Below, piece after piece: positions 3,789-63,286 of a DNA stretch of 64,000 nt. The notes under the pieces are model-generated. The model was given only the letters and a program-made list of their open reading frames with translations, was not told where the DNA came from and ran no database searches. Source of the DNA: Candidatus Omnitrophota bacterium (GTDB taxonomy: Bacteria > Omnitrophota > Gorgyraeia > Gygaellales > Profunditerraquicolaceae). The position numbers were made by a program, and so were the translations under genes. The DNA is taken from assembly GCA_022710715.1 (NCBI GenBank), contig JAKLGJ010000003.1, forward strand, positions 25,083 to 89,082. Direction: 5' to 3'. The stretch's first letter is position 1. Every line of letters begins with the position of its first letter.

Positions 3789-3808
3789 GTCTTCACAGAT
3801 GCATGCGT

Positions 3809-15178: not shown

Positions 15179-15294
15179 AATGCCGGGGCGGAAAAAACCG
15201 AATCGAGCGGCAACGACAGGCGCGACGATAAAGAGGATACTAAAGAAAAGCAGGAATGCGACTGTGTGGAGGGATTTTTTATTGATCTTTACAC

Positions 15295-35402: not shown

Positions 35403-36200
35403 CTACGGCAGGATCTTTGTGGGATAGCCTTTTTGTTTGAGCACTTTCTCTGCCGCAACCGCTTCATCCCGGGAAGCATAATTGCCCACCCGGACCTTGA
35501 ATATGTGCCTCGATCCGGATAAAGCTTCCGCCACGATGACCGCGTATCCCTGCCGGCTCAACTTCTCCGCCAGCTTACCGGCATTGATTTTGCTGGTAAA
35601 TGCGCCCACCTGGATCACGAAAACAGGCTTCTTCTCATTTGTTCCCCCAGCGTCCTTGACGGCCTGGGACACGGCCGCCTGAAAATCTTTCTGCATCGCG
35701 GAATTTATCACCTCTTGAGTCACCGCCGGCTGGCTCGTTTTTTCCGCTACCTGTTTTGCCGCTACCTGATCGACGCGCTGCTGAACATCGGCCCTGAACT
35801 TCGTCCGGGGATGCTCCGAGGAAAATTGCTTTAACAATCTGTCCGCCCTGGCATACTCGCCCAGAGCAATGGCCGCGTCAACCGCGCCCAATTGCGACTG
35901 TTCCAGAAACGGGCTGCGTTTGAATTCCTTGCCGATGATATCGAAAATATCCGCGGCGCGCAGCGCGTTGCCGTCCTTGAGATAACACACACCGAGATAA
36001 TAATACAGCTCGTCCAGCCGGGAGCTGCTCTTGCGCGCGCCGGCAAGCAGGCTTTCTCCTTCCCTGATCGCCGCTTTGTATTCCCCCTTAAGAAATGCGA
36101 TCTTGACCTTATCCGGATTCAAACACCAGCCGTTTTGAACCGATAGCACCCATACCAGCGCCAGCAAAACCAAAACGTTCCCAGATCTGCTTGAATTCAT
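35403..36200 (-). CDS. TPR and SPOR domain protein (peptidoglycan-binding, cell-division associated)
   Basis: Signal/TM N-terminus, TPR-like helices, and a C-terminal SPOR-like VFVIQVGAF...KVRVGNYASRDEA. Confidence 0.55.
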   Translation of the reverse strand: MNSSRSGNVLVLLALVWVLSVQNGWCLNPDKVKIAFLKGEYKAAIREGESLLAGARKSSSRLDELYYYLGVCYLKDGNALRAADIFDIIGKEFKRSPFLEQSQLGAVDAAIALGEYARADRLLKQFSSEHPRTKFRADVQQRVDQVAAKQVAEKTSQPAVTQEVINSAMQKDFQAAVSQAVKDAGGTNEKKPVFVIQVGAFTSKINAGKLAEKLSRQGYAVIVAEALSGSRHIFKVRVGNYASRDEAVAAEKVLKQKGYPTKILP

Positions 36201-37429
36201 TTCTTCCTCCTGGAAATTGTTTTCTGCAGGTCCAGTATCAACGCGTGCCTGCGTTCTTTTTCCGCTTGCTCCACGGTATCCGCCCAGGCATACGCCTCGG
36301 AATGCGGGCGCGGAGAGTACTTAAAGATGTACGCCGATTCGAACTCGACATCTCTGACCAGATCGACGGTTTGCTGAAAATCCTCCTGCGTCTCTCCGGG
36401 GAATCCCACGATAATATCCGTGCTTAAAGCGCCGCCGGGGACCAGCTTCCGGTACTGCCGCGCCAGATCGAGATAATACTCGCGGGTATACCCGCGATTC
36501 ATCCGTTTGAGCACCGCATTCGAACCGGCCTGAAAAGGCAGGTGCAGGTACGGCTTGATATTCGCATATTCGGCCATCACGCGGAATATTTCGACCGTGG
36601 TATCCCTGGGATGAGACGTAATGAAACTCAACTCATCCACTCCTTTAAGCTGCGCAACAGTCCGCAGCAGCGCGACAAAATCGCCCTCATCGCCGCGATA
36701 CGCATTGACGTTCTGACCCAGCAGAGTTATCTTGCGCCTGCCGCCGGCAGCCGCCTCCTTGATCTCGCGCACGATCTCTTTATACGGCCGATTGCGCAGG
36801 GCTCCGCGCACGAACGGGACCACGCAATACGCGCACATATTGGAACAGCCTTCGGAAATGACCACATACGCCTGCTCCGGATCCTGGCGGTATCCGGTAT
36901 GGTAGATCTCTTCCGGCCGGGACTCGGCGTCGGTCTCCCAGACCTTGACTTCATATAATGAAGATCCGCCCGATTGCTTCCGCGCGGAAAATAACCGCTC
37001 CAGGATCGCGGGGATTTTGGCGATATCCGCGGGACCGACCACAAAATCCACTGCCGGCGAACGCTCGAACACCGCCTCTTTGTAATTCTGGGCCATACAT
37101 CCCACAAGCCCCACCAGCGGCTTCTGCTTCGGTTTCTTACCGGCCGCGGACTTCCGCTGCGCGCGCGAGCTTTTGGTGAGCCTGCCGATCTCGCTCCAGA
37201 CCTTATCCTCCGCATGCTGGCGCACCGAACAGGTATTGAAGATCACCGCGTCGGCATGCTCGGCGGACTCTGTCAGCGCGTAGCCGGCCTGCTTGAGCAA
37301 CCCGGCGATCACCTCGCTGTCGCGCACATTCATCTGACATCCGAAGGTGCGCAAAAGTATACGCTTTCCATGACCCGGCTTGCCCTCGGATTTGCCTGTA
37401 TTGTCGTCGTTTCGCTCTTTTTCTGCCAT
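36197..37429 (-). CDS. miaB: tRNA-2-methylthio-N6-dimethylallyladenosine synthase
   Basis: TFGCQMN MTTase N-terminus. Radical-SAM CSNMCAYC. TRAM C-terminus. The first 100 nt overlap the recombinase 3' end. Confidence 0.85.
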   Translation of the reverse strand: MAEKERNDDNTGKSEGKPGHGKRILLRTFGCQMNVRDSEVIAGLLKQAGYALTESAEHADAVIFNTCSVRQHAEDKVWSEIGRLTKSSRAQRKSAAGKKPKQKPLVGLVGCMAQNYKEAVFERSPAVDFVVGPADIAKIPAILERLFSARKQSGGSSLYEVKVWETDAESRPEEIYHTGYRQDPEQAYVVISEGCSNMCAYCVVPFVRGALRNRPYKEIVREIKEAAAGGRRKITLLGQNVNAYRGDEGDFVALLRTVAQLKGVDELSFITSHPRDTTVEIFRVMAEYANIKPYLHLPFQAGSNAVLKRMNRGYTREYYLDLARQYRKLVPGGALSTDIIVGFPGETQEDFQQTVDLVRDVEFESAYIFKYSPRPHSEAYAWADTVEQAEKERRHALILDLQKTISRRKK

Positions 37430-39009
37430 TTTAGCCCCTCTTCATAACACATTTTCCAAGGTTCGTTAATCTCGACCTTGACGATCTCTTTGTTTTGAAT
37501 GTAAATGCCCTTGAATATAATCCTCATGAATGTTTTGATGAGATAGTCCATTTTCTCGCTGTTTGGATTGCTCCGCAGGCAAAGCAAAAAGTCCTGCGTT
37601 GCCTTGACCAAATTCACTGCATTGCGCTTTTCAAGAATCTTGATCTGAATCGCCTTCACATCCTGTCGGAGTTTCTTCTCCTCGTTTCTCAAAAGCTCGG
37701 CCCGATCCTTGTAGATATCAATATTGATCTTGTCCTCCGAGAAGACCTCGTAAAGCCCTTTCTGTTTCTCGAGATTTCTGGCAAGATCCTTTTCCTTGCC
37801 ATCCAGCTCTTCAATGATCTTATGCTCCGGCTCGGTGGCGCTAAGTTTGATGACGTCGCTCAATTCTTCAATAACGTGCAGGTTTTTGCTGATAGTGTCA
37901 ATGATATCCCAAACCTGCTTAGTAAGAACATCGGCGCGCACAGCCTTATTCGAACAATTGACATACGATACGCCCAGCGCCGAACACGCATACCACGGCC
38001 TTCTCATTTTGGTGCGGTGATTGCATGTAATCATCAGCCCACGGTAATTGCGGCCGCATTCGTTACATTTAACCACACCGGACAAGTGATACACGTTATT
38101 CCGGAAACGGACAACCGCATTCGTCCGGTTACGCGCTAAAAGTTTCTGCGCGGCATCATGCATCTCTTGCGTGATGATCGGCTCGTGGGCGTTTGGGACC
38201 TCGATCACCTTTGACGGATCATTATTCACGTAGCAATAGCCTTTACCCTCGCCATTCTTCGTCTTGCGCTTCTTATCGTAATGCCGCCGGTTCCACGTGA
38301 TCGTGCCCAAGTAAACCTTGCTATGCAAAATGTCCGAAATAAACTTGCCGTAAAATCTGCCGCCCTGTCTTGCCGAAACTCCAAGATGATAATAATGTCC
38401 GGCGATCTGCGCGGTACTCTTGCCGCCTAAATACTGATCGTAAATGTCCCTGACAATTTTTGCCTCTTCCGGATGAATCTCGAGCTTCTTGGTTTCTTTA
38501 TTGTGGCGATAGCCATACGGCGCAAAGCGTGCGCCTTGCCAGTGGCCGCGCTTAACACCCATGACCATGCCCGGGAATACACGCTCAACCAGACGATTGC
38601 GCTCAAACTCCGCACAAGAACCCAACATTTGAATCGCCATCTTACCGGCGCTGGAAGTCGTATCAAACGGCTCGGTCGCTGATTTATACCCAATGCCGAG
38701 GTTTTCAAACTCTTCGAGCAATCCCAACAAGTCCTTAAGCCGACGACTCAATCGATCCTGCTTATAGACCAAGACCAGATCGAACATCTTATTGCGCGCA
38801 TCGAAAAGAAGCTTTTTTAGCGCTGGCCTGTCCATATTCCCACCGGAAAATCCATCGTCCATGTAAACATCTCTTCCGGAAAGACTGCAAACAACATCCC
38901 AGCCGAAGTTCTTCGCGTATTGCAAAAGATAATTTCTCTGCACCTCCAGCGAAAAACCTTCTCTCGCTTGATCCTCTGTGCTAACTCTCGTATACAATGC
39001 GACTTTCAC
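37330..39009 (-). CDS. large serine recombinase (integrase)
   Basis: (GTG-start) MKVALYTRVSTEDQ...FDLVLVYKQDRLSRR resolvase catalytic domain, then a recombinase domain and a Cys-rich zinc-ribbon region. 559 aa. Confidence 0.85.
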   Translation of the reverse strand: MKVALYTRVSTEDQAREGFSLEVQRNYLLQYAKNFGWDVVCSLSGRDVYMDDGFSGGNMDRPALKKLLFDARNKMFDLVLVYKQDRLSRRLKDLLGLLEEFENLGIGYKSATEPFDTTSSAGKMAIQMLGSCAEFERNRLVERVFPGMVMGVKRGHWQGARFAPYGYRHNKETKKLEIHPEEAKIVRDIYDQYLGGKSTAQIAGHYYHLGVSARQGGRFYGKFISDILHSKVYLGTITWNRRHYDKKRKTKNGEGKGYCYVNNDPSKVIEVPNAHEPIITQEMHDAAQKLLARNRTNAVVRFRNNVYHLSGVVKCNECGRNYRGLMITCNHRTKMRRPWYACSALGVSYVNCSNKAVRADVLTKQVWDIIDTISKNLHVIEELSDVIKLSATEPEHKIIEELDGKEKDLARNLEKQKGLYEVFSEDKINIDIYKDRAELLRNEEKKLRQDVKAIQIKILEKRNAVNLVKATQDFLLCLRSNPNSEKMDYLIKTFMRIIFKGIYIQNKEIVKVEINEPWKMCYEEGLKWQKKSETTTIQANPRASRVMESVYFCAPSDVR

Positions 39010-39188
39010 TATTCTTCCTTTAGCGTCTCACGCCATTCTTTAATCTTGGCGATACACTCGTCCGTAAAAACCGGCCAGTCTTTGTAATCGCGTTTGGGCT
39101 TAACCCAGCCCTTGCGGATCCAATTGATCATGGTCTGCCGGTGAACTCCCAGCACTTTTGCCGTCTCTGTCATGGTGTAAGTTTTCAT
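39009..39188 (-). CDS. excisionase/AlpA-like HTH_17 DNA-binding protein (candidate recombination directionality factor)
   Basis: 59-aa ORF not in the track: MKTYTMTETAKVLGVHRQTMINWIRKGWVKPKRDYKDWPVFTDECIAKIKEWRETLKEE. Its stop overlaps the integrase GTG as TAGTG. Confidence 0.6.
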   Translation of the reverse strand: MKTYTMTETAKVLGVHRQTMINWIRKGWVKPKRDYKDWPVFTDECIAKIKEWRETLKEE

Positions 39189-39235
39189 TTGAATATCCTC
39201 ATCGATTGGGCTTCAGTATACCGTATTATACAACC

Positions 39236-39463
39236 CTATACAAGCGGTTTCTTCTCAAGGTCATAGCAATTTAGGAACATCCGCGACAACAGCTCTATTC
39301 CCTCATCAAACGATTTATGCGCCTCTTGGATTTCAGCACAAGACAGTCCCCGGATCTTTAGCTTTATCTCTAAAGCCTCCCAGCCCCGCGAGGTAACTGC
39401 CTGATCTTTATTCGTGCTTACAACCTTGCTCATCTTCCACTTCCCAATAGGACATTCGGACAT
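39236..39463 (-). CDS. hypothetical small protein
   Basis: 75-aa ORF downstream of regulatory repeat A. Confidence 0.3.
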   Translation of the reverse strand: MSECPIGKWKMSKVVSTNKDQAVTSRGWEALEIKLKIRGLSCAEIQEAHKSFDEGIELLSRMFLNCYDLEKKPLV

Positions 39464-39479
39464 TTTTCGTGTCGTATGA

Positions 39480-39745
39480 TGTCCGGTTTCACTGACATAC
39501 TGACATGACTCGTGTCAGTGAATGTCAGTCAAAACACCCCTCAAAACCCTCGAAATACCCGAAAATTGACGCTTTTTCCGCAAAAAACACCTATTTTGAA
39601 CCCCGTAGACCCTATTTTGACGTTCTCCCAATAGCCACATATGACATGACATCGATTTTTGAAATTTTGTATCACTGACAGAACGCGCCTCGCCCGACCC
39701 TCGGCCGACACCCCCTTCCAAGGACCCGTAGACCAGCATCGAGCT
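39480..39745. repeat. regulatory repeat A (TGACA/TGTCAG palindromes); diverged direct copy of region B at 58.7-58.97 kb
   Basis: Contains ACTGACATACTGACATGACTCGTGTCAGTGAATGTCAGT. The segment gacatgacatcgattttt...cgcctcgcccgaccctc...ccccttccaaggaccc is about 75-80% identical to 58868-58965. Confidence 0.6.
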
Positions 39746-39874
39746 ACCAGTGACAGCAATGACATTTTTTTCCGCACTTAAACTTTTACTTACCACACTC
39801 AATCACCCTGCTCCTTACTCCTAATCTACGAACACAATTAATAAAAAATCCTGTCATAATCGTCATAGCTGTCA

Positions 39875-42004
39875 TTAGAAAGGCCGCTCCGAATAATCAA
39901 CCTCACCCTCCCTGCGGACGCGTATGCCGTCCCACCGGCGAGACGCGCCGCAACGCCCCTTATTGATAGCGGGATATTGACGCAAGAGCTCCCGGCCAAA
40001 CATGATCTTGCTAAGCGGCCGGTACTCGCTCTCCAGACACCATTCCCGGTAAGCCACATACAAAGCATCACTGCCTATATCCGCCTGAGCGTCCAAGACA
40101 CACTGCTCCTCCACAAAGATGATCACGTTATTGTTCTCCTTGCGATAGGCGTCCTTCACGGTCTGCATCGAGGCGCTCTCCTCGAAATACCCGCGCTTCC
40201 TTAAACGCGTAAGGCCGTTAAGCGACCACAAGAAAATGCCGTCCAGCTCACTGGCCACGATCTTATGCTTTAACTTTGGATCGCGTTCCTCTATTGAAAA
40301 CTGCCGGTTAAACGGAAGGATTAAAAGCCGCCGGTAATACCCCTCGGTCTTATCCCCCACGCGCGGCATGTTATTGGTTGAGAAAAGAAGCTTGCAGTAA
40401 GGTTTGAATTGAAACGGCTGGCCGTATTTTTCGTCAGCGGAGATCGTATCGCCGGTCACGATCGCCTTAAACATGTTGTCATAGACATTTGTCTTGGCAT
40501 TGGTTTCAAGACTGATATTGACCAGTTTGTCCCGAAGCCGGGCTATGTAATGGGAATCGTTAAACTTCTCAAGCGGGATGGATGAGCAATTGTCCTTACC
40601 GATAAGCTCCTCGAGCACATACAAAACAACGCTTTTCCCATTGGCCCCCTCGCCAAACAAAAAGAGCGCCTTTTCATAATCATTGTCCCGGGTGAGGCAA
40701 TAGCCGAAATACTCCTGCAAAAGCATGATCCGGGCCGCGTCGCTTTCGAATATCTGATCAAGACTCTTCTGCCACAACAAACACTCGGCGTTTCCGCGAT
40801 ATGTCACATTAAGCTGGTTGATGGAATAGACATCCGCCGAATGCGGCAAGAGCTTCATCTTGTCGATGTCATAAAGCCCGTTTTTGACATTAAAGAGCGT
40901 GATGCCGTTAATGATGTCCGGCTTGATGAAAGTCTCGGTCTTAAGCGCGACAAGAACATTGCGAAGCTTGCTCGCTGAAAACCCGGCCCCGCAAGCATCC
41001 TTGATCCACTTCTGCACCTCCTCAACAAAAAGCGGCCGGTAACACCCGCCTTTGTATTCATAATAGGTGTCAGCGAAATTGATCAACCGATGATGCTTGA
41101 GAATTTCGTCAGCGACCTCATTGGCGTTAACCTTTCTGGCTATAAGCAGGCTTGGCCGCGACGACGCATAAACCTCCCCGCAATCATTCACCGCCTTTTC
41201 GATAACCGATTGGCCATAGGTCCGGCCGTCACCAAAATGCTTCTCATCCCACTTCGGCCGCATGAGGCCTGACTGCCGGAATAACGCGTCCATCTGCCCG
41301 GCGTCTTTGCCTGTCCAGAAGGCTAGCTTATTGCAGAGCGCCAGATCGGCTTCACTTTGAGAGGGATAATCGTTCTGCCATTGGCCGGAATAAAGCCGCT
41401 GAAACCTCTCCGCGTCTTTACTCTTGGCGATTAAGGAAAAGATGTCGTTAGCGGGGGCTTTATCTACAAACCGGCTGAATATGTCTTTAAGCGCATCAGT
41501 GCACTCGTTAAGTTCAGCCGAATAATTTTCAAGGCGTTTACCGGTAACGGTAAAGAATCGGCCCTTGGTATAAATCTCCAAGCCGATCTTTGAAATCTTG
41601 CAGGCCCGGGCGATCTTGCCCTTACAAAGAATATGAATACCTGTGCCGCTTGGCGAATACTCCGAATATGAATCAAGCGCCTTAAGAATCTCAACTGCAT
41701 ACGGCGCGATGGCTCCGTCTTTGACGCAGTGGTCAATATCCACGCCCACATACGGCGGCTGGAATACAAAGCCGACTCCCGCATAGCCGCGCTGAAGCGC
41801 AAGATCGCTTGCGGTCGTAAAGTCCGTCCATGTGCTTGGATCGTTTGTTTTGGCAGGACGTCCGGTAAGGACGTTCATCGGAACCTTGTCGGTGCGGTCT
41901 TTATTGTGCCTGAGCTGATAACCGACCCAACAAGACAGTTTAAGCAATTCCTGAGGAATAACCTCTTCGATCTTTCTCTTCTCTTTTCTTCTCTCGTCTT
42001 CCAT
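39875..42004 (-). CDS. bifunctional prim-pol / P4-type primase-helicase (D5-like NTPase)
   Basis: GVGFVFQPPYVGVDIDHC...SPSGTGIHIL is a prim-pol domain. The C-terminal half has Walker A FGEGANGKSVVL, typical of phage/plasmid primase P4-like proteins. Confidence 0.75.
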   Translation of the reverse strand: MEDERRKEKRKIEEVIPQELLKLSCWVGYQLRHNKDRTDKVPMNVLTGRPAKTNDPSTWTDFTTASDLALQRGYAGVGFVFQPPYVGVDIDHCVKDGAIAPYAVEILKALDSYSEYSPSGTGIHILCKGKIARACKISKIGLEIYTKGRFFTVTGKRLENYSAELNECTDALKDIFSRFVDKAPANDIFSLIAKSKDAERFQRLYSGQWQNDYPSQSEADLALCNKLAFWTGKDAGQMDALFRQSGLMRPKWDEKHFGDGRTYGQSVIEKAVNDCGEVYASSRPSLLIARKVNANEVADEILKHHRLINFADTYYEYKGGCYRPLFVEEVQKWIKDACGAGFSASKLRNVLVALKTETFIKPDIINGITLFNVKNGLYDIDKMKLLPHSADVYSINQLNVTYRGNAECLLWQKSLDQIFESDAARIMLLQEYFGYCLTRDNDYEKALFLFGEGANGKSVVLYVLEELIGKDNCSSIPLEKFNDSHYIARLRDKLVNISLETNAKTNVYDNMFKAIVTGDTISADEKYGQPFQFKPYCKLLFSTNNMPRVGDKTEGYYRRLLILPFNRQFSIEERDPKLKHKIVASELDGIFLWSLNGLTRLRKRGYFEESASMQTVKDAYRKENNNVIIFVEEQCVLDAQADIGSDALYVAYREWCLESEYRPLSKIMFGRELLRQYPAINKGRCGASRRWDGIRVRREGEVDYSERPF

Positions 42005-42006
42005 CG

Positions 42007-42237
42007 TTACACTCCGTTTTGAAATAGATAATCTTTAACCCTTCGGTAACAATCAAACAGCTTGCGCGCCTCTGAATCGGCATAAAAGTCCTCGCAGGCC
42101 TTATGAACAGCCGGGATGTCGTCAAACAAGACACGCTTAAGCCTCCCCGAGCCTTCAATACCCCGCATGGCAAACCCGCAATACAGTAAATACGTAGCCA
42201 AATAGAGATTCCCTGCTTCAAAATGCTTGTTTTTCAT
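42007..42237 (-). CDS. hypothetical small protein upstream of primase
   Basis: 76-aa ORF 3 bp from the primase start. Confidence 0.35.
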   Translation of the reverse strand: MKNKHFEAGNLYLATYLLYCGFAMRGIEGSGRLKRVLFDDIPAVHKACEDFYADSEARKLFDCYRRVKDYLFQNGV

Positions 42238-43125: not shown

Positions 43126-43506
43126 TTAATCTTCATGCTCAAGCGGCTTTTCCGGGATCATATCGTAAACCATGGTCTGGATCTCATATTCAAACCATTC
43201 CTGAAACACCTTCCACGACCTGTCCTTTGGCCACATCTCAGGATCCGTATACCAGCCGCCAAGCTCGTGCTCAAATATTTCTACGCAATGCTTCTTCAGA
43301 AACTTTTCGAACTTCTCATTCTCCTCATAGGCCGGGATCAAATACACATGCTTTGAATCAAAACCGTCGGTCTCAACATCCTCCGGCTTCATCTCATGTT
43401 CCGGCCCGTCATACTCCTTGCTGGTGTAGACCAACCAGTCAATGAAAGGCTTTTTCAGCTTCACGATCAAAGCGGCGCGGTTGATGTCGGGAAAATATTG
43501 TTCCAT
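43126..43506 (-). CDS. hypothetical small acidic protein (last gene of the 13-gene array)
   Basis: 126-aa ORF that directly abuts the stop of the TPR gene. Confidence 0.4.
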   Translation of the reverse strand: MEQYFPDINRAALIVKLKKPFIDWLVYTSKEYDGPEHEMKPEDVETDGFDSKHVYLIPAYEENEKFEKFLKKHCVEIFEHELGGWYTDPEMWPKDRSWKVFQEWFEYEIQTMVYDMIPEKPLEHED

Positions 43507-46362
43507 TTAGCTGATCGGGTAATTTAGTTTTATCCACTGATCAATTTTCTTGTTAACACTATGCATAAGGTGCTCGGCTAAACCAAGTTTCTTAGCAAGG
43601 ACTTGGCCAAACAGCTTGATAATTTTTTGAGGTGATCCACGTTTCGCCAATAATCCTATAATTAGATACAAATATCTATCCTTGATTTCATCGGGCAATG
43701 TCTCAATAAGTATCATCTTCATAAAATCTGTTAACACTGCAAATAACGACTCAACGGATGTTTCCTTGGAATCAAGAACGACGACAGCCATGTCAAATGC
43801 ATTGCCTGACTGTATCTGGAAATTATCTTTTTCTGCATAATAAAAAAGCATTTTTGCGGATATAGAAAGATAAAAATAACCAATCTTCATCAATTCGAGT
43901 ATTTTGTCGCAGTAGTCGTTTTCGGCCAGGGCTCCTTTTTGCAGAGCAACTGCAAGAAAATTCTGAATGCCAAAAGATTCGATTTTATGCTCGTTGCGAA
44001 TTAATTCTCTGAAGAAGACGTCATCACAAAACAATGGTATTTGTTTTTCGACGCACGATTGGATCGAATATATATAGGGCAATCCCAGTATTTTTTCTTT
44101 ACCTTTAAAACTATCATCCAATGGATGCTCTAATCCTATTGTTTTGAAATCCTGCGAATTTCGTATTTTTTCAAGAAAATCAATTTTCATTTTAATATTT
44201 TCAGCAGAGATTTCTTGTCGAAAGGCTTTTCCTTCTCGCGAGAAAATCGTTGTTAGCCCCTCGTCCTTGCTTTTGCTTAACTCCATAATCTCCATATCCA
44301 GCTCATCAAGCGTGGCTTTAAGAACATACACTTCGGAAAACATCTTCAATGGCAAATACAACAAATCCAAAAAGCCTAACGTAAACAATGCGATCGGCTC
44401 AATGATGGCCTTATTAGAATTAAGAACGATCTCCTGCTCTTTTCTTTGCTCAAGAGCACTTCCGTTAGCACAATAAAGCTTAGATCCTTGACCAATAAGT
44501 GCGCCCCAACAGACGAATAGGCTCCTTCCAGAAAAAGCAGAAAGCGCGCCAATGGTAATATTTTTTGATAAATACATTTCCATTATTTTCGTTGATCTGT
44601 CCGATGCTTTACTCAACATATCCTTCAGTCTTTCCGGACTAGCTTCAACTTTCCAAATTGCCTTATTATCAGGGAAAGAAATGTTAAAGTTATCTAAAAT
44701 ATTCTGGAAGGCTTTCACGTATTTACTTTTAATCTCAACTATCTTGATAACGTCATCTGCACCGTATTCATTTTTAACTATTATTTCGTCCATAACCCTT
44801 TTCCCGTAAAGTGCCTTGCCCAAACCGGAATCCTTATATAGCTCGAATTTGGCAATCGACGATTTAGGATTTGCAGTAATCAAGTATTCTTGATCGTGTC
44901 CATTCTTTTTAATCTTCACAAAGAAATTTTCGCGAACAGTTTCGGAATCTAACATTTCGCTCTTTTTATCTTTTCGGCTTGTAAACGTGTAAATATAAAA
45001 CAGTTGGATCTCCGGATTATTGAAATCGATTTCCAACGCTTTAAATAATTGCTTTATAGCTTCGTCATGGTTTTGGATTTTTAAGAATGCTCTCGCCAAA
45101 ATGAGGAAAGAATCCTTGTCTTCAACTTCATCTTTAACCTCAGATAGCAGTTTTATTCCCGCATCCTTTTCCTTTCCTATATCAATCATGACTTTGGCAT
45201 AATTAAGTTTATGACGAATATTCTTTGGCTCACGCTTCGACAGTTCGAGGTATAAAGACATAGCGTCATCTAGTTGATCCATTTCCTCATAAATGGCCGC
45301 TTCCAACTCGAACGTAAAAGGAACAAACTTTCCTGATTTTCTAAGATTTTGGCAAATAGTTAAACATTTCTCGAGGTTCTTGCTTCTATGCTCTTTTGAT
45401 TTGTAAAGACAAATTAAATAATCCCGCAATACATCATCAAACAATGACTCCGAAATAAATGTTTCATATAACGGTATCGCCTTATCATATGCCCCAATAC
45501 TTTTAAAATGCCTCGCTAATTCGATTTCTGCTATGTTTTTTTCTAACCCAACAGAGTTTTGTCTTGCTTCAAGAGACAACTCTTCAAACGCTTTGACATT
45601 TCCTTGGCTTCTTTTCAGTTCTGCCTCTGCCAGCAGAATTCTTGGATTTCTCCCAAACTTTAAATAGAGATTGTCGACTATTTTTTGTGCTTCATCATAA
45701 GCCGCTTTCTTGCTTAAACATTCAATCATGAGTATCCCGGGGATAAGATCCTTTTCAGCCTCACCGTCATAATGCTTTCTTATTGCCTCAATGGCCTCAT
45801 CTACCTTGGAATCAGGACGCTCTAAATAACACGAAACTAAAATCGGAAAGATCTCATCTTTGTTGATACCTTTTTCTATCGCACAAATAAAATCTTTAAT
45901 CGCATCATCTGGTGATTTCCGCAAGGTATTAAGCCGCGCACGATTTGCATAGGCCGCCGCACTATCCGGATTAAGCACGATCGCCGCATTGATATCCTCA
46001 AAAGCTTTTGTAAAATCATCTAATATTATCCTGACGCTGGAGCGATTTATATACGCGTCTTCCAAGACGCCCTTCTTTTCTGAATCTTTTAATAAATCAA
46101 TCCCTTTACTTAATAGCCGTTCCGCCTCTTTCAGCTCTTCTATATGTTCTAGCAAAAGCCCAAATCGCCAAACCCTTTCCTTCATGATTGACTCAAGCAG
46201 ATATGAGCCAAACGAGAAATAGTTTTCGGCAATACCCGGATCAGCATCAATGGCACTTTGAAAATATTGCTTAGCATTTTTCCTATCGCCTTTATCGGCA
46301 TAGGCTATTGCAATATTCAACAATGCTCCGCTATCTTTTTGGAATCTTTTATCTATATTCAT
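43507..46362 (-). CDS. large TPR-repeat protein (951 aa), no NTPase motif seen
   Basis: Many TPR-like helix pairs (AIAYADKGDRKNAKQYFQSAIDADP etc.). Its start overlaps the upstream stop by 4 bp. Confidence 0.55.
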   Translation of the reverse strand: MNIDKRFQKDSGALLNIAIAYADKGDRKNAKQYFQSAIDADPGIAENYFSFGSYLLESIMKERVWRFGLLLEHIEELKEAERLLSKGIDLLKDSEKKGVLEDAYINRSSVRIILDDFTKAFEDINAAIVLNPDSAAAYANRARLNTLRKSPDDAIKDFICAIEKGINKDEIFPILVSCYLERPDSKVDEAIEAIRKHYDGEAEKDLIPGILMIECLSKKAAYDEAQKIVDNLYLKFGRNPRILLAEAELKRSQGNVKAFEELSLEARQNSVGLEKNIAEIELARHFKSIGAYDKAIPLYETFISESLFDDVLRDYLICLYKSKEHRSKNLEKCLTICQNLRKSGKFVPFTFELEAAIYEEMDQLDDAMSLYLELSKREPKNIRHKLNYAKVMIDIGKEKDAGIKLLSEVKDEVEDKDSFLILARAFLKIQNHDEAIKQLFKALEIDFNNPEIQLFYIYTFTSRKDKKSEMLDSETVRENFFVKIKKNGHDQEYLITANPKSSIAKFELYKDSGLGKALYGKRVMDEIIVKNEYGADDVIKIVEIKSKYVKAFQNILDNFNISFPDNKAIWKVEASPERLKDMLSKASDRSTKIMEMYLSKNITIGALSAFSGRSLFVCWGALIGQGSKLYCANGSALEQRKEQEIVLNSNKAIIEPIALFTLGFLDLLYLPLKMFSEVYVLKATLDELDMEIMELSKSKDEGLTTIFSREGKAFRQEISAENIKMKIDFLEKIRNSQDFKTIGLEHPLDDSFKGKEKILGLPYIYSIQSCVEKQIPLFCDDVFFRELIRNEHKIESFGIQNFLAVALQKGALAENDYCDKILELMKIGYFYLSISAKMLFYYAEKDNFQIQSGNAFDMAVVVLDSKETSVESLFAVLTDFMKMILIETLPDEIKDRYLYLIIGLLAKRGSPQKIIKLFGQVLAKKLGLAEHLMHSVNKKIDQWIKLNYPIS

Positions 46363-47336
46363 CTTCCACCCTTCTCGGCATAAAGCTCAATAGCCTCATC
46401 AAGGCGTCCACCGGCTCGCAACAACATGGCTTTAAGATTGATACAGTCATTATTATCCGGTTCCAATGAAATTGCGGCGTCGATAAACGGCAACCCTTCC
46501 AACGGCTTATCATCAAATAGACTTGCAAGCGCTCTATTCTTGCAAGCAATCACGGATTTTTTTCCCAAAATATCAAATGCCAACTTAAAATTAATAGCGG
46601 CAGATTTTCTATCCCCCAACGCCGCTTGACATGCTCCCAAGTTGTTATGAACCTTAAACCTTGCCATAATAGGAACTTGCCCATCAGATTCAAACGCTTT
46701 TAACAGCCCTTCATATATGACCTTTGCCGTACCAAATTTTTCCTTGTCTAATAGGATTTTGGCCTCATCTATGTTTTTCTTATATTTTGAACTGGCTAGT
46801 TCCGCATCGCTATCTATCGCCAAAACTGCCGGTGGTTCTAAAGACGCGCTTTTCTTTGCTTGAGATGCAACGGCGCCTAGAACATTATCCTGTTTGAGTA
46901 TCGACAATATTTCGTTTACACCATTAAGGGTTGCTTCTGAAGTTTGAGCGCTCGAAATAGGAACATTTTCAGATTCAGGTAGCGTTGCGCCAAAGTGCTC
47001 AAGAAATTTTGAAACAATTTTATTAACTGTGGCTTCTGTTTCATTCCCAAAGTCAGCGCCACAATTAATCAGGCTTTGGCGCAGTTCTGCGGTAACAATT
47101 TTAGGATTAGTTCGGTAATTAGTCTTAAGCAATCTAACAAGTTGGCTGTTCTCGCCGAAAGACGATCTCAACAAGTAATCTATCGATTCAATTTGCAAAT
47201 CAATCCCTGTCTTGCTGATTGAAATACTTATGCTCATCAGCAAGGGATCCTTCTTAAAAAGCCACTTTAACGACTTATCTAGCCCATGCTTAATCGCATG
47301 CCCAATAATCAATTGCTGCAACCACAAAAAATTCAT
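46359..47336 (-). CDS. hypothetical protein with C-terminal TPR repeats
   Basis: 325-aa ORF. The C-terminus AKVIYEGLLKAFESDG...AISLEPDNNDCINLKAMLL is TPR-like. Confidence 0.45.
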   Translation of the reverse strand: MNFLWLQQLIIGHAIKHGLDKSLKWLFKKDPLLMSISISISKTGIDLQIESIDYLLRSSFGENSQLVRLLKTNYRTNPKIVTAELRQSLINCGADFGNETEATVNKIVSKFLEHFGATLPESENVPISSAQTSEATLNGVNEILSILKQDNVLGAVASQAKKSASLEPPAVLAIDSDAELASSKYKKNIDEAKILLDKEKFGTAKVIYEGLLKAFESDGQVPIMARFKVHNNLGACQAALGDRKSAAINFKLAFDILGKKSVIACKNRALASLFDDKPLEGLPFIDAAISLEPDNNDCINLKAMLLRAGGRLDEAIELYAEKGGR

Positions 47337-47363
47337 CAGAGTCCTCTTTTATAAAATCCGCGA

Positions 47364-48152
47364 TTATTTTAGTGGCGTGGTACATGTGCCATCGCTATCG
47401 GTACGAAATACCTTAGTGCTATTTGTCCTATATCGCTGAAGGGCTGTGTTACTAGGAAGATTATCAAAAACACCTGACTGAGTTGAAATAATCGTATCTC
47501 TGGGCGATACGGCTTTTATAAAATCCAAATTTGCACCGTTCTCAGAACCATGATGACTTGCACGTAAAACATGGCAATTAGATAGCTTCCAATCGGCCAT
47601 AATGAGTTCGAGCTCAGAATCAGATGCATCTCCGCAGACTAAAAAATTATTGGCAGGACTAGAAACCCAGACGACAAGACTTGCATCATGGCACTCTCGT
47701 GTTTCATTATTATTTACATTCTTTCGTGGCCCCAAGACAAGGAATTCACAGTCGGAAAACTTTTTTCTTACATCTTTCGTGCAAGTAAACCTTTTTTGAT
47801 TATCCGGTACCAGTGCATCCTTCAGCTTGAGGTATTCATTCCAATCATCTAACGACAAGGAATTATCCCCGTGCCTGCGTTGATATGGGGATCCCCAGAA
47901 TTCAGCGACAGTGAAATTACCTACCAAATCCTCCATCCCCAAATAGTGATCGTGATGTGGGTGCGTGATAATCAGCAAATCTATATAAGTTTTCCCGATA
48001 GTCTGTTTTAAATAATTGGCAATGTTTGTTGGTTTTGATGCTCCGTTACTGAAACGTCTATACCCGCAATCTATAACAACAAGATCATTGTCCATCTCAA
48101 AAATTGCGCAATCCGCACACCCGACATTTAAAAAATGAGCTTTAAACGACAC
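47364..48152 (-). CDS. ComEC-type MBL-fold metallo-hydrolase (stand-alone, putative nuclease)
   Basis: ITHPHHDHYLG (HxHxDH) and the ASHHGSENG motif typical of the ComEC/Rec2 beta-lactamase-like domain. Confidence 0.6.
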   Translation of the reverse strand: MSFKAHFLNVGCADCAIFEMDNDLVVIDCGYRRFSNGASKPTNIANYLKQTIGKTYIDLLIITHPHHDHYLGMEDLVGNFTVAEFWGSPYQRRHGDNSLSLDDWNEYLKLKDALVPDNQKRFTCTKDVRKKFSDCEFLVLGPRKNVNNNETRECHDASLVVWVSSPANNFLVCGDASDSELELIMADWKLSNCHVLRASHHGSENGANLDFIKAVSPRDTIISTQSGVFDNLPSNTALQRYRTNSTKVFRTDSDGTCTTPLK

Positions 48153-48155
48153 TTC

Positions 48156-49259
48156 CTATACTCCTATCTTCTTTAATAGGTTTTCAGCATTTGAGTCCAT
48201 GTATACTTTGGGCGTTCCACCAGTGCCCTCAAAAGAAATCAAAATATGATGACCATTTCGCGTGCTTACAGAAAAGCAATCTTCGGTCTCCCCGTCAATA
48301 TCAACGCTTAACCCAGAGGCCCCTTCTGATGATTGGTATCTGCTGTCAATCGATCCATCTTTATCGTCTCCGTGCCGCTTATCAGAAATCACAACCAATG
48401 CAGGTTTATTGTTTTTCATAGAAAGAAACAAGTCTTCAGAAAATCCCGATTCTAATCCGTGATGTGGTGCGATGAGAATTGACAGGCCGTAATCTTTTAG
48501 CAACTTCTTTAATGATGGCTGGTCACCAGAAACAGAGTGCCATTCTGGATGTTCAGAACTTTTTTGCCTGTCGAATATCGTGTAACGCTTTTCAAGCCCT
48601 TTCCCTTCATTTAATAAATGTTTTAGGCAATCAGGTGTTATGTCACCGGGAATCAGCATCGTATGGATTCCATGTCGATAAAAAAGCACTAAGCTCGTCC
48701 CATTTCCATAATCTTGATCATTTTTAGGATGAAGTTCATTTACAACTGGCGGCCTCACATAGAAAAGACCGTACTCGAGATTTGGAACAGACCGCGAAGA
48801 CTCATAACAAATTGTTTGTAGTGGCAATGTCCTAGAAGAATAAAGCTCTTTGTATAGCTTTATATTTTCCTCACTCCCCTCAGGGTTCTTTATTCGCTCC
48901 CAATCAAGCGCCTCGGGTTTTGCGGAACCATCCGTCTTATCATGTGGACAAGTATGGAGAGAAGAATAAAAAAGCGAGTTCTTGCCATCTTTTGATGCAA
49001 GCGAGACTATTTCCGAAATATGATCTGCATGCGGATGCGAAAGAATTGTTTGGGCAACCTTGCATTTTTTGTAATCATCGAGATGCGGGATTACGTGCTT
49101 AGACAGAAATTCGGTGGGGCTGAATTCTTGGCTACACCCAAAATCATATAAGATTCCTTGGTTCAAACCTGTCCGGATAAAAATACTTAATCCACGACCA
49201 ACATTGAATACCCAAATAAAACTTTTGATCGTTTGGGCCCATTGAGGGACTTTTGCCAT
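48156..49259 (-). CDS. ComEC-type MBL-fold metallo-hydrolase paralog
   Basis: SHPHADHISE and LIAPHHGLESG motifs. 367 aa. Confidence 0.6.
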   Translation of the reverse strand: MAKVPQWAQTIKSFIWVFNVGRGLSIFIRTGLNQGILYDFGCSQEFSPTEFLSKHVIPHLDDYKKCKVAQTILSHPHADHISEIVSLASKDGKNSLFYSSLHTCPHDKTDGSAKPEALDWERIKNPEGSEENIKLYKELYSSRTLPLQTICYESSRSVPNLEYGLFYVRPPVVNELHPKNDQDYGNGTSLVLFYRHGIHTMLIPGDITPDCLKHLLNEGKGLEKRYTIFDRQKSSEHPEWHSVSGDQPSLKKLLKDYGLSILIAPHHGLESGFSEDLFLSMKNNKPALVVISDKRHGDDKDGSIDSRYQSSEGASGLSVDIDGETEDCFSVSTRNGHHILISFEGTGGTPKVYMDSNAENLLKKIGV

Positions 49260-49268
49260 ATGCTCACC

Positions 49269-49922
49269 TTATTCCTTGCCAAAAACAGCCGCCGAAGCAG
49301 ATTTATTTTCACGCGAATTTAAATAGCCTATCCCACTGAATAGTTGAATCGCGCAGACCAAAACACACGAAATCGCTATGGTTATTATTGTTTGCCCAGC
49401 GACATATAAAATTACCGCTAATAATGCTGAATTTAGAATTCCCACAAGATACAGCCACCACGATTGAGAACTTAAAATATTGAAGAAAGGCGGCTTTGCG
49501 CAGTTGGTATACATTTTACTTTTGTTCTCAAAACCCAAAGGCTTGGCTGAAAGGAATAATCCCCGCTGTTCGTTGATATACCGCATACAAAAAACAAAAT
49601 AAACCCTATTCCTGACGATCAAAAAGAACATACAAAGACCGAATATAAAAGCAATAGTCAACCCAACAATCAACGCGGCTTTTATATCCAACCCCTTGTC
49701 GATGGAGTACTGATAAAGACCGATCGCGATACCAGCAATTGTCGTATAAAATGTTGCCAGAAATTTAAAAACATCCACTATCTGCGCATCGTAATATCTG
49801 ACTTGGTCAAAGCATTGATTGAAATCATTCTGCAAGAAATCGACGGCCGCTTTCTCCAGCTCCGTATTCTTATCATTGCTCATAACGCCTCCTCTAAATT
49901 TATCCGCGAAAACTTCATACAA
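49269..49922 (-). CDS. membrane protein (about 4 TM)
   Basis: Hydrophobic helices. Its start overlaps the hsdS stop. Confidence 0.45.
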   Translation of the reverse strand: MYEVFADKFRGGVMSNDKNTELEKAAVDFLQNDFNQCFDQVRYYDAQIVDVFKFLATFYTTIAGIAIGLYQYSIDKGLDIKAALIVGLTIAFIFGLCMFFLIVRNRVYFVFCMRYINEQRGLFLSAKPLGFENKSKMYTNCAKPPFFNILSSQSWWLYLVGILNSALLAVILYVAGQTIITIAISCVLVCAIQLFSGIGYLNSRENKSASAAVFGKE

Positions 49923-51252
49923 CCAGCTCCCCGCGGAAGGCTTTGGCTAAAATTGACTGCTCGAGCTTGTCCGTATAGCTTTTTGACTTGATATATCTCT
50001 CGACAAAACCATCAAGCGCACTGAAGCTCGATTTAACTTTACTAACGATCTGATCCTGCTCCGCTTTAGGCGCAAAAACAAAAGGCAATTCTCTGACTCG
50101 TTGACAATTAAGGGCCTGCGGGCCAGACCCACTGCCAAAACTTCTGTTATTTTCATATTGATAATGAAACCAATACCAAAGATATTCGGGATTTACCCGT
50201 CCATGGGCTATTTGAACGGCCGCAATGTTCTGATTTATTGCGGCCTCAATATTAAGAATTGCAGATTGCCCTCTAGTTTTTCCCTCACCTATCATCGCTA
50301 TCAAAACTGTACCCGTAGGAAATAATTTACTTGAGCAGTTATCCAATCCTTCCTGCGTTATCCTTTCGCGAGATGCGCTAATTTTATTATTTCGCACTTC
50401 TCCAGAACTTATCCATGGTATTGAACCATTCCAATATTTGGTAATTTTTCGCGATGGAGTGCTCCCGTTGTTTACAACCCCGATAAACCCGATACAACAC
50501 GCCACCCAAGAAGAAGGAAAATTGAACTGCTCTTCATAGCTCGCTAAAGAAATTTTAGTAATTTCCTCAAAGTTTTTCTTTTCGCGGTTTGTTATTTCTG
50601 ACTTTAGAATAAACTCTCTTATTAAAGCGAGGTCATCTTCAGCGTTTAACGTGTTGTTTTCTATCCTCCACGTCTTCGTCAGCTCACCGGAGAAAGCCGC
50701 GGCAAGGACAGATTGACGAAAACGACTCAAGATCACAGGAATTGTGTCGAGGCGGGATTGGGCGTCTTTGACTTTTGCCAGCAGACTATCGAGCTTGTCT
50801 GCAATGCTCTTTTGTTCTTCTTCATCGGAAGGAAACGAAATCTCGGCAGTCTTAAGGAAATTCTTGTTGATATGCTGAAGCCCTGTACCAGTACTGGTTT
50901 CAAGAATAAAGTTCTTGCTTCTCCGTATAAAATATTCAAGAAACTTGGTATTTAATCCATTTTTAGGCGACAAGACAGCCATTGTGGAGCCAACTGCGCC
51001 AGTCATTCCGCTGGCACATTTGCCTATACTTCCATCCCAAACCAGTAAAACATCCTCTTTTTTTGCTCTGGGTACTTTGGGATCATTGGTAAATGACCGA
51101 GCCGGTTTACCCTCTAATTCATCAATTAAAATATAAGGATCATATCCTTTCTTTTCATGGCTGATGACGGCGGCAGGTTTTTTCCCTTTACGAGAAGAAA
51201 CTACATCCTTTAATGGACTTGAAATCCATCCCTTGGGCAATTTATTCTCCAT
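49915..51252 (-). CDS. hsdS: type I restriction-modification specificity subunit
   Basis: MENKLPKGWISSPLKDVV is an HsdS TRD N-terminus. Two-TRD architecture with conserved central and C-terminal helices. Confidence 0.75.
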   Translation of the reverse strand: MENKLPKGWISSPLKDVVSSRKGKKPAAVISHEKKGYDPYILIDELEGKPARSFTNDPKVPRAKKEDVLLVWDGSIGKCASGMTGAVGSTMAVLSPKNGLNTKFLEYFIRRSKNFILETSTGTGLQHINKNFLKTAEISFPSDEEEQKSIADKLDSLLAKVKDAQSRLDTIPVILSRFRQSVLAAAFSGELTKTWRIENNTLNAEDDLALIREFILKSEITNREKKNFEEITKISLASYEEQFNFPSSWVACCIGFIGVVNNGSTPSRKITKYWNGSIPWISSGEVRNNKISASRERITQEGLDNCSSKLFPTGTVLIAMIGEGKTRGQSAILNIEAAINQNIAAVQIAHGRVNPEYLWYWFHYQYENNRSFGSGSGPQALNCQRVRELPFVFAPKAEQDQIVSKVKSSFSALDGFVERYIKSKSYTDKLEQSILAKAFRGELVV

Positions 51253-55335: not shown

Positions 55336-55343
55336 ACTTTCCC

Positions 55344-56054
55344 TTATTTGTAAGCGACCAGCTCGCCGCTATCAGCGAAGCTGTGATACTGGTTATCCCC
55401 TATAATTAAGTGATCGAGCACTTTGACCTGCATCACATTGCCTGCCTGACAAAGCTCCCTTGTAAAATCTCTGTCTTCCTTGCTGGGTTTCGGATCCCCG
55501 GAGGGGTGATTATGCAGGCAGATGATTGACACAGCGAACTTCTGCAGAGCGCAGTGAATAATCTCTCTAACTATCGGCATCGCACGGTTAACTGTTCCGG
55601 ACGCCGTATCTGTGATGTCTATAATCCGATTGTTTGAATCGAGACAGACGACCTTGAAGACCTCTGTTTTGAGGTCGCGAAGCTGTGGCATGACGATATC
55701 CACAACATCCTTGGCAGAGGCGATCTTCTGCTTCCCGGTGGACACATCATCCTGTCGATAGCGCCGCCCGATTTCAAGCGCGGCCTGAATATGGGCGATC
55801 TTGGCCCCGCCTAAGCCCTTGAACTCCTTCCAGTCCCGGGCGTCGGTGTGAGCCATGTTGCGAAATGTACTGAATTTCTTGAGTATCTTGCGGGCGAGGT
55901 CAATGGCGCTGGTGCCAGCGGTGCCGGTACGAAGAAGAATGGCCAGAAGCTCTGAATTACTCAAAGCCCCCGCACCCTTTTTGAGGAGTTTTTCTCTCGG
56001 CCTGTCATCCTCCGGCCAAGACTTTATGCCTGATATTTTTCTTTCCTTCACCAT
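55344..56054 (-). CDS. RadC-like JAB/MPN domain protein
   Basis: WPEDDRPREKLLKKG HhH N-terminus and the JAMM motif HNHPSGDPKPSKED. Start set at the internal Met with a purine-rich SD. Confidence 0.7.
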   Translation of the reverse strand: MVKERKISGIKSWPEDDRPREKLLKKGAGALSNSELLAILLRTGTAGTSAIDLARKILKKFSTFRNMAHTDARDWKEFKGLGGAKIAHIQAALEIGRRYRQDDVSTGKQKIASAKDVVDIVMPQLRDLKTEVFKVVCLDSNNRIIDITDTASGTVNRAMPIVREIIHCALQKFAVSIICLHNHPSGDPKPSKEDRDFTRELCQAGNVMQVKVLDHLIIGDNQYHSFADSGELVAYK

Positions 56055-56110
56055 TCTTCTCTTCTCTGTTCTTCTCTTGAAGATTCCGCACACACTGTGT
56101 GCAGAATTTT

Positions 56111-59815: not shown

Positions 59816-59921
59816 GCCCTTTTATTCCCCGACTACCGCCTCTGCCAAGCTCCTCATCGCATTACTATAATCCTGCCACCGGCCAGCCGAACGTATGGAT
59901 ATAAACTTTTCTCAACATACT

Positions 59922-60356: not shown

Positions 60357-60360
60357 TGCT

Positions 60361-61266: not shown

Positions 61267-61307
61267 TGTTTCCTCATGTTTTGTTTTTGGTAATCCCTGG
61301 CGGCGAG

Positions 61308-62099: not shown

Positions 62100-62128
62100 T
62101 ATCTCTTCTTTTCTTTTTCTTTCATTGT

Positions 62129-63134: not shown

Positions 63135-63286
63135 TACCCAACAGACTACGTTAGAATATAACTTGTTGGGTAACCGATGTCAAGAAAAAAATTACCCAAC
63201 GAACGGCGATATTGCGCATTCTGTTGGGTAACAAATATGCATTTGTAAAATCCTCTTTTCATGCCACTGTACTCCATTGCGCTCCG

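Follow-up and report, generated by a model that had tools for sequence, protein, structure and literature searches.

A 64,000-nucleotide stretch of DNA from the metagenome-assembled genome of an uncultured Candidatus Omnitrophota bacterium (GenBank assembly GCA_022710715.1, contig JAKLGJ010000003.1, positions 25,083 to 89,082), referred to here as the window, carries on its minus strand the tRNA-modification gene miaB and, overlapping its 5' end, a gene for a large serine recombinase. An earlier note, made from the letters alone, had pointed to this overlap as the mark of an inserted element. We read the region, with a probability of about 0.85, as a defence-gene island whose own large serine integrase inserted it within the 5' part of the miaB coding sequence and which supplied miaB with a surrogate start. 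The island reaches from the integrase gene to a host methyltransferase gene about 26 kb upstream, the 5' end of miaB is chimeric, sites of all four attachment types occur in relatives, and the arrangement is conserved throughout the integrase family. As far as the compared sequences tell, the same design recurs across the phylum Omnitrophota. The following features carry this reading.

36197..37429, minus strand: miaB, chimeric, 410 amino acids from an element-supplied ATG
37330..39009, minus strand: large serine recombinase (integrase), 559 amino acids, GTG start, three Pfam domains
37331..37345, minus strand: identity block of the attachment sites, TTCGGATGTCAGATG, encoding F-G-C-Q-M of MiaB, from the comparison of four sites
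37364..37443, minus strand: element-supplied translation start of miaB, with Shine-Dalgarno sequence, ATG and a 22-codon low-complexity extension
39009..39188, minus strand: MerR/excisionase-like winged helix-turn-helix (HTH) gene, 59 amino acids, from weak family matches and synteny
63228..63286, minus strand: interval of the far (integrase-distal) junction, flanked by the methyltransferase stop (63287-63289) and the first operon of the island
63240-63241, minus strand: TG of the candidate far junction ...GGATTTTACAAA-TG-CATATTTGTTACCC..., whose TTGTTAC is shared with the P' arms of loci L101 and L053
63287..64000, minus strand: host S-adenosylmethionine (SAM)-dependent methyltransferase, 253 amino acids in the full contig, running off the window end

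The junction between the integrase gene and miaB

The earlier note had described a serine recombinase of 559 residues that ends at 37330. These coordinates hold, and Pfam recovered all three domains of a large serine recombinase: the catalytic Resolvase domain at the N-terminus (PF00239, residues 3-156, E = 1.2e-33), Recombinase (PF07508, residues 180-294, 73.7 bits, E = 2e-20) and Zn_ribbon_recom (PF13408, residues 309-368, 35.5 bits, E = 1e-8), the latter two over their cutoffs. The motif YTRVSTEDQ (residues 6-14) was kept in all relatives aligned. By its domains the enzyme can be assigned to the large serine recombinases, and catalysis of recombination between attP and attB is predicted. 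The nearest NCBIfam models were CcrB (200.6 bits), CcrC (175.7 bits) and XisF, all far under cutoff; because the scores fall far below equivalog cutoffs of 900 bits, the enzyme is not a Ccr. Homologues at E<1e-40 numbered 489, nearly all named or binned ones being from Omnitrophota, and relatives spanned about 40-98% identity.

The neighbouring gene product scored 377.9 bits against the MiaB equivalog TIGR01574 (cutoff 355.3; profile positions 3-372 of 437) and carries UPF0004 and Radical_SAM domains. The 410-residue translation contains the cluster cysteines C31, C67 and C111 as well as CxxxCxxC (CSNMCAYC). A TRAM domain was not matched by Pfam in MiaB, and the TIGR01574 alignment ends at position 372 of 437; the Omnitrophota MiaB relatives that were read belong to the same length class (387-414 residues). 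The gene miaA lies two genes downstream, and the miaB stop overlaps the start of a downstream SPOR-domain gene (36197-36200). UPF0004 begins at residue 23 and TIGR01574 at residue 25, in agreement with the estimate in the earlier note that the core starts about 23 residues after the ATG. Because profile matches only begin there, residues 1-22 (MAEKERNDDNTGKSEGKPGHGK) represent an extension. A Shine-Dalgarno sequence, GAGGGG (37435-37440), is located 5 nt upstream of the ATG (37427-37429). The stretch from 37364 to 37443 doubles, in the +1 frame, as the coding sequence of the C-terminal tail of the integrase. The overlap of the two genes is exactly 100 nt (37330-37429), the length given earlier, and it was found again in nine further species, whose integrases share only 41-89% identity with that of the window; this shows that it is no chance feature.

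Had the overlap been native, as the earlier note recognized, it should also occur in related genomes without any element. We compared 80 miaB loci from other Omnitrophota species, one per species, and the overlap proved not to be native. In about 60 of the 80 species miaB has no recombinase and a short N-terminus, and the native MiaB N-termini at loci without integrase read, for example, MKKVFIRTFGCQMN or MNKKVFIQTFGCQMN. Every integrase-bearing miaB locus, in turn, encodes a low-complexity MiaB extension of 21-39 residues. An integrase, an integrase cut by a contig edge or a relic was seen at about 18 of the 80 loci. Two loci are particularly informative. At L071 the integrase is 89% identical to that of the window, with MiaB only 45% identical. 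At L076 there is no integrase, and about 135 bp are nearly identical to window positions 37333..37470, comprising the Shine-Dalgarno sequence, the ATG and the extension up to CAGATGAAT; the flanks of this relic are unrelated or weakly related to the window. Because L076 has kept this segment next to a MiaB that is only 41% identical, the extension, the Shine-Dalgarno sequence and the ATG are element DNA. Codons 1 to about 30 of miaB thus come from the element and the remainder from the host.

The other end of the island became evident from empty sites. At L003, L044, L058, L063 and L064, the start of miaB adjoins or overlaps a gene for a SAM-methyltransferase. The window homologue of this gene lies 26 kb upstream of miaB, its end at 63287, with ordinary host genes beyond. 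Since the methyltransferase adjoins miaB in empty sites and host genes follow past the window copy, the extent of the island is fixed at about 25.9 kb, or approximately 37.34-63.25 kb (about 37,339 to about 63,240). The GC content is 36-50% between 37.4 and 63.3 kb versus about 55% in the flanks. Second copies of the integrase or HTH gene and internal relic junctions were not found within the island.

The DNA upstream of miaB is island only for 26 kb, with all island genes on the minus strand, like miaB. Transcription of miaB must therefore begin within the element. A scan for terminators between the HTH gene (xis), the integrase gene (int) and miaB gave none, and read-through of the xis-int transcript into miaB would be the simplest source of expression. 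The earlier note had attributed both the N-terminal extension and the promoter of miaB to the element. The former part was borne out by the relatives and the L076 relic, whereas for the promoter it is the geometry of the locus that points to the element.

Attachment sites and the integrase reading frame

Comparison of miaB loci in relatives had been proposed in the earlier note as a way to locate attB and the cores of attL and attR. All four types of site were found in relatives, although not as one matched set. They share a 15-bp identity block, TTCGGNTGYCARATG, with the codons F-G-C-Q-M, and are composed as follows.

attP type (L101): 3' end of the integrase gene, ...CTTTTGCGCACC, followed by TTCGGATGTCAGATGG and ACAAATTGTTACACTCGGATTTTACAC...
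attL type (L053): native miaB start ATGAATCGCAAAATTTTCCTAAAAACT TTCGGTTGCCAGATGG, then the right arm of L101, nearly identical over more than 55 nt
attR type (junction in the window): left (P) arm like that of L101, then TTCGGATGTCAGATGA and the miaB body
attB (empty sites L003, L063 and L058): native start, then TTCGGNTGYCARATGA and the miaB body

The displaced junction of L053 opens with the native miaB 5' end MNRKIFLKTFGCQM, which is followed by the shared core and the P' arm. Displaced native miaB 5' ends were also seen at L044, L050 and L018, and a displaced relic of the window type at L056. The putative attB target is the very conserved DNA ACCTTCGGNTGYCARATGAAY, which encodes T-F-G-C-Q-M-N, the MiaB motif that contains the first cysteine of the Fe-S cluster; the putative core reads TTCGGATGTCAGATGAATG and the wider stretch GCGCACCTTCGGATGTCAGATGAATGTGCGCGAC.

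The attP-type sites differ from each other to the right of TTCGGATG, where ACGAT-TGG (L100), GCCGA-TGT (L102) or ACCGC-TGG (the L056 junction) follows. Exchange to the right of the first TG is excluded because arms of the L100, L102 and L056 types would then put a stop codon into miaB. If the family uses a single crossover, the aligned arms place it with fair probability at the TG of the Cys codon (37338-37339 in the window) or just to its left. No direct repeats longer than 13 nt were detected at the two island ends, as is expected because a serine integrase should leave none.

These sites suggest how the junction could have arisen. The attP of the element would be situated in the 3'-terminal part of the integrase gene, its left arm imitating miaB as far as the crossover; in front of this arm would come a Shine-Dalgarno sequence, an ATG and a low-complexity linker of 21-39 codons. 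Recombination, for which the Cys-codon TG is the most likely position, would shift the native start and promoter of miaB to the far end of the island and would join the surrogate start to the miaB body, such that a full-length MiaB with all cluster cysteines could still be made. Transcription of miaB would then start within the element, probably via read-through of the xis-int operon. At the same time, the Met-Asn codons of miaB would enter the integrase frame and create its stop codon; in an unrecombined attP the integrase frame would read TGG and run on for 2-45 further codons.

The last step can be followed in the integrase family. In all nine integrase-bearing loci (integrases 41-89% identical), the integrase is read in the +1 frame of the extension and ends at the same TGA, which in the window (37330-37332) is built from the invariant Met-Asn codons of miaB (A-TGA-A). 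Among 122 full-length family members, 102 end on the predicted +1 reading of the core (...PSDVR*), and about 19 read on past the core into related tails, R-W-x-x-Y.... These tails add 2-45 codons, the frame reading TGG at unrecombined sites. Because miaB Met-Asn codons enter the frame, integration makes the stop codon of the integrase (TGG to TGA). Downstream of the read-through forms lie cargo genes and not miaB, and one such form is found on a contig from IMG/VR that also encodes a small terminase subunit and a replication initiator.

Some further observations concern the integrase tail. The viral contig L108 (IMGVR_UViG_3300029286_003022), on which a 74%-identical serine integrase reads through an attP-type site, also holds a terminase small subunit and, at 15112-15681, a fragment of a tyrosine integrase. 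In the integrases P0001, P0002, P0010, P0011, P0012, P0022, P0028, P0033 and P0133, the tail contains in-frame insertions of 16-35 residues with the motifs xDxRFRGxD or HSEPKAKNL, just upstream of the miaB start. By their sequences, these look like translated miniature repeat (MITE-like) elements that keep the frame open, and they suggest that the integrase tail tolerates change. Selection for an open integrase frame was considered and dropped: the extension, which is poor in T, has no stop codon in any of the three frames, over about 29 codons in the window.

The rewriting of the integrase C-terminus by recombination raises the speculative idea that free and integrated isoforms act as a built-in sensor of the integration state. 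We regard this as improbable. If it were true, the isoform with the P'-encoded tail (R-W-x-x-Y...) and that truncated by the miaB stop might differ in stability, activity or directionality. Such a device would be analogous to lambda sib retroregulation or to the integration-dependent immunity of mycobacteriophages, in which, as Broussard et al. reportedly described in 2013, integration alters the repressor and removes a degradation tag. The overlap might also couple the integrase gene translationally to miaB, an essential-like host gene.

Several observations weigh against insertion of the island as laid out above. The four site types were drawn from different genomes and elements. The contigs L100 and L101 showed no terminal overlap, and no circular contig was found. 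Dyad symmetry in attP-type sites had its maximum, a weak one (5.2 of 10 pairs), at the Cys-codon TG, and in attB it did not support this TG, the best centre lying 9 nt further right. Some of the read-through forms reside on large, apparently chromosomal contigs, e.g. the P0131 cluster with up to 448 kb, and may be tandem-accretion hybrids rather than free attP. At L056 and L053, older junctions had been displaced by later integrase-less insertions. From these displaced junctions and the large contigs it was deduced that some "attP-type" sites are probably tandem-accretion hybrids at the miaB-proximal junction. A consensus scan for a miaB promoter inside the integrase gene found none near miaB. 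At the far junction of the window, a displaced native miaB 5' fragment is absent or degenerate, although the proposed mechanism predicts one. This junction is not placeable to the nucleotide, and a miaB 5' end can no longer be made out in its host half-site. The left arm of the far junction was tried as a decayed copy of the extension and dropped, the local alignment score being without significance (p = 0.06 versus shuffles, 0.02 versus random window segments). Finally, exact look-ups of the integrase, the SPOR-domain protein and the last island gene, and two metagenome scans, yielded neither an empty site nor an attP of this species.

The small HTH gene, the far junction and alternative explanations

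An unlisted open reading frame (ORF) of 59 amino acids at 39009..39188 had been reported earlier to overlap the integrase start as TAGTG. It exists as described, the TAG stop sharing its G at 39009 with the GTG start of the integrase. It had also been labelled HTH_17/excisionase-like, and this label stood in part. The best PHROG matches of the protein are excisionase families (E about 1e-5), and a homologue is located directly upstream of the integrase gene in every full element examined. The match to HTH_17 (26.0 bits), however, stays below the Pfam cutoff of 27.0, and that to TIGR01764, 'excise' (20.7 bits), below 28.8; only the N-terminal half of each profile was matched. The close relatives found number only 24 and are named 'HTH domain-containing protein' or 'predicted site-specific integrase-resolvase'. 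Its family matches and position make the protein a candidate recombination directionality factor (RDF) or regulator, and it might serve as the excision factor of the island.

That the protein is not an RDF is quite possible, if short of an even chance. It would then regulate the xis-int-miaB transcript as a MerR-type transcription factor, or act as an accessory DNA-binding subunit akin to the HTH at the N-terminus of IS607-type serine recombinases. MerR_1 is the sole family over its curated cutoff, marginally so (22.3 versus 21.6 bits, residues 4-57), the HspR and IS607 models match weakly, and the name 'predicted site-specific integrase-resolvase' was given to one relative by JGI. Longer solitary homologues adjoin miaB at loci without integrase. 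To our knowledge, the RDFs known for serine integrases are usually not HTH proteins. An RDF function is favoured by the excisionase families as the best PHROG matches, by the additional weak matches to HTH_17 and TIGR01764 and by the tight translational coupling to the integrase gene in every full element. There is also a precedent in PhiRv1, a serine integrase that works with a small Xis-type RDF. The diversity of serine-integrase RDFs is covered in PMC12286644.

Homologues of the small HTH protein with 95-130 residues are encoded directly upstream of miaB at L023, L025, L028, L048, L056, L068 and L069. At these seven loci there is no integrase, and the MiaB N-terminus is short and native-like. 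At L056 the HTH gene belongs to an insert of 3.6 kb without integrase (RhuM-like, MORC-like ATPase, HTH), by which an older junction of the window type was displaced.

With regard to the far end of the island, the complete methyltransferase and further host genes lie upstream in contigs L093 and L094. The window contains no second GCQMN-coding copy and no copy of the P arm. Displaced native miaB fragments do exist in relatives (L053, L050, L018 and L044, and as the relic at L056). At L044 (3070-3140), a frameshifted fragment with a P' arm is found upstream of the SAM-methyltransferase gene; because of this position, the methyltransferase next to miaB may itself be cargo of an ancient element. 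The sequence of the far junction was identical in four other conspecific contigs examined, and the whole locus was identical in GCA_035390565.1 and in several ENA, JGI and Logan assemblies. All 11 of 11 conspecific contigs contain the island. The Logan contig L090, which breaks inside the extension, was considered as a polymorphism; its sequence is identical to the window and provides no such evidence. Taken together, this copy of the island is probably fixed, and it may no longer be able to excise, its far junction having lost the host half-site.

A copy of the same anatomy that is still mobile is rather unlikely. The far junction would in that case be a functional attL with an unexpected host arm, and excision would occur upon expression of the 59-residue protein. 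The integrase and HTH ORFs are intact, and the far junction keeps a P'-arm-like pattern, TG-N5-TTG-TTAC. Sites of the attP type are known in family members, including ones with 97-98% identical integrases. Recent activity of the lineage follows from integrases of this identity (L102, L105) that occur in different surroundings and are accompanied by metal and oxidative-stress cargo. On the other hand, the host half-site of the far junction has no sequence like TTCGG or ACCTTCGGA, and neither an empty site nor a circle turned up in the 11 conspecific contigs, which come from several samples, or in the two metagenome scans.

A native, domesticated arrangement, in which a host regulatory recombinase similar to XisF or SpoIVCA controls miaB by excision or inversion and the overlap is ancestral, is very improbable. 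It would account for the conservation of the overlap over many species, for XisF among the nearest NCBIfam models, for the fixation of the island in all conspecific contigs and for L017, where an inverted duplication of the miaB 5' region lies on either side of int and xis. It is contradicted by the roughly 60 of 80 species whose miaB has a short N-terminus and no recombinase, by the completely different cargo of elements with 97%-identical integrases, by the decoupling of integrase identity (89%) from host MiaB identity (45%) at L071, by the existence of attP-type sites and a viral contig for the integrase family and by the foreign GC content of the island. In L017 (positions 1-5200), where the two inverted miaB 5' copies have the same 40 nt upstream and the int and xis genes between them are reversed, the arrangement may reflect either inversion by the integrase or a chimeric assembly.

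It is equally hard to believe that there is no functional overlap, that MiaB begins at the ATG within GCQMN (378 residues), the integrase gene abuts by 4 nt and the extension is untranslated: although gene callers picked this start on every public contig, such a MiaB would have lost one of the three N-terminal cluster cysteines, namely the first, together with the initial beta-strand of UPF0004, the Pfam and TIGR01574 alignments already begin at residues 23-25 of the 410-residue protein, the GAGGGG sequence stands before the ATG at 37429, and the in-frame start and extension were retained in every element lineage, also in the integrase-less L076 relic. All public gene calls (L081-L092) start miaB at the internal Met, 37333; the called gene overlaps the integrase stop by 4 nt and has lost the first Fe-S cluster cysteine. 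These calls are probably an artefact of overlap avoidance by the gene callers. As a consequence, MiaB is mis-annotated in public Omnitrophota metagenome-assembled genomes.

Island content and comparison with known systems

The gene content of the island is given below.

39236..39463, minus strand: small ORF of the backbone (whole backbone 39236..42237)
39875..42004, minus strand: PrimPol/D5-type primase-helicase; Pfam NrS1-1_pol-like_HBD, D5_N, DUF5906 and Pox_D5; PHROG DNA primase, E 1e-164
about 42007..42237, minus strand: DUF5659 gene of the backbone, call from L081
43126..58310, minus strand: defence cargo block, from Pfam and PADLOC matches
43507..46362, minus strand: TPR-GreABC-PIN protein, 951 amino acids, GreA/B-C and PIN-TPR-GreABC domains (Pfam)
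region 43507-49259, minus strand: after the TPR-GreABC-PIN gene, a TPR protein and two metallo-beta-lactamase (MBL)-fold proteins, the MBL pair matching PADLOC PDC-M48B, LmuA-like
49915..55335, minus strand: type I restriction-modification genes hsdS, hsdM and hsdR (Pfam)
within 43126..58310, minus strand: RadC and metallophosphoesterase (Pfam)
56797..58310, minus strand: AbiEii/AbiEi (Pfam)
59027..63134, minus strand: distal cargo block, from Pfam matches and reading of the sequence
59027-59815, minus strand: class-D (OXA-like) beta-lactamase-like gene, 262 amino acids; Transpeptidase and Beta-lactamase2 domains, STFK and KTG motifs
within 59027..63134, minus strand: C_GCAxxG_C_C protein, alpha/beta hydrolase and SDR (Pfam)
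62129..63134, minus strand: DUF6788 and NTP_transf_8 pair with its own promoter and operator repeats

The backbone (DUF5659, primase-helicase, small HTH and integrase) can be read, from its gene families, as satellite- or prophage-like. Capsid or conjugation genes were not present among the island genes. The same backbone, with primase-helicase, HTH and integrase up to 97% identical, occurs with different cargo in L102/L103 and L097/L098, where it is accompanied by Fur, ferritin, superoxide dismutase, a P-type ATPase, a pyridine-nucleotide disulfide oxidoreductase and SIR2. The element family is modular. In the defence block, the TPR-GreABC-PIN, TPR and two MBL-fold genes may form a composite defence module; PADLOC matched neither the TPR-GreABC-PIN protein nor most of the other cargo proteins submitted to it. 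The leader of the DUF6788 operon (63150-63230, minus strand) contains a promoter-like site, TTGACA-17-TATATT, and four direct or inverted copies of GTTACCCAACA, which resemble operator repeats.

In the literature searched, no description of serine integrases that target miaB was found, and the text of a recent Omnitrophota preprint is without miaB. Conceptually nothing here is new, since islands that restore a 5' end and serine-integrase islands are both already known. A natural family of serine integrases with hundreds of members, a conserved, deducible attB and all four site types constitutes raw material for integrase engineering and is useful for studying the co-evolution of att specificity. 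The element illustrates how parasitism of a housekeeping gene can be made safe at its most conserved codons by a surrogate ribosome-binding site, start codon and linker. The miaB 5' end further emerges as a hotspot of gene flux in a poorly known phylum, with defence, metal-stress and resistance-like cargo and nested relics.

Elements of large serine integrases that reside in ORFs include A118 in comK, SPbeta in spsM and skin in sigK. The miaB island shares with them the enzyme class, an attB in coding sequence, a short core and the absence of long direct repeats. These elements split and inactivate their target until excision, whereas miaB is kept functional by the surrogate 5' end. The biochemistry of the A118 integrase has been described (PMC3556126). 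Like the miaB island, SCCmec is inserted by large serine recombinases (Ccr) and places its cargo at one end of a conserved gene for RNA modification, rlmH/orfX in its case, which is left intact. SCC elements, however, target the 3' end and carry the ccr genes in the interior of the cassette, in contrast to the 5' target of the miaB island.

SXT/R391 integrative and conjugative elements in the 5' end of prfC were reportedly shown by Hochhut and Waldor in 1999 to supply a new promoter and N-terminal coding sequence. Like these, the miaB element supplies N-terminal coding sequence to an interrupted housekeeping gene, and probably also a promoter. SXT/R391 elements possess a tyrosine integrase and are conjugative; in the miaB island conjugation genes were not seen. 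With archaeal integrases of the SSV type, whose attP lies inside the integrase ORF (PMC7253208), the miaB element has in common that attP falls within coding sequence, so that integration alters the C-terminal part of the encoded protein. SSV integration splits and inactivates the integrase gene, whereas in the miaB island only the last integrase codons and the stop change.

The closest functional analogue of the miaB island is provided by the dusA-specific integrase islands and prophages (Farrugia et al. 2015, PMC4482086), in which the 5' end of a gene for tRNA modification is the target and is replaced by sequence of the element. The earlier note had called integration into gene 5' ends typical of serine-integrase elements; in fact, 5'-end replacement is better documented for tyrosine-integrase islands such as these (PMC4482086). 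Both systems replace the 5' end of a tRNA-modification gene and leave the gene intact, place the integrase gene at the junction, occur in many species and carry variable cargo. The dusA islands employ tyrosine recombinases and are found in Proteobacteria, whereas the miaB island uses a large serine recombinase in Omnitrophota. Unlike the dusA islands, it targets an Fe-S cysteine motif, and its integrase ORF runs through attP.

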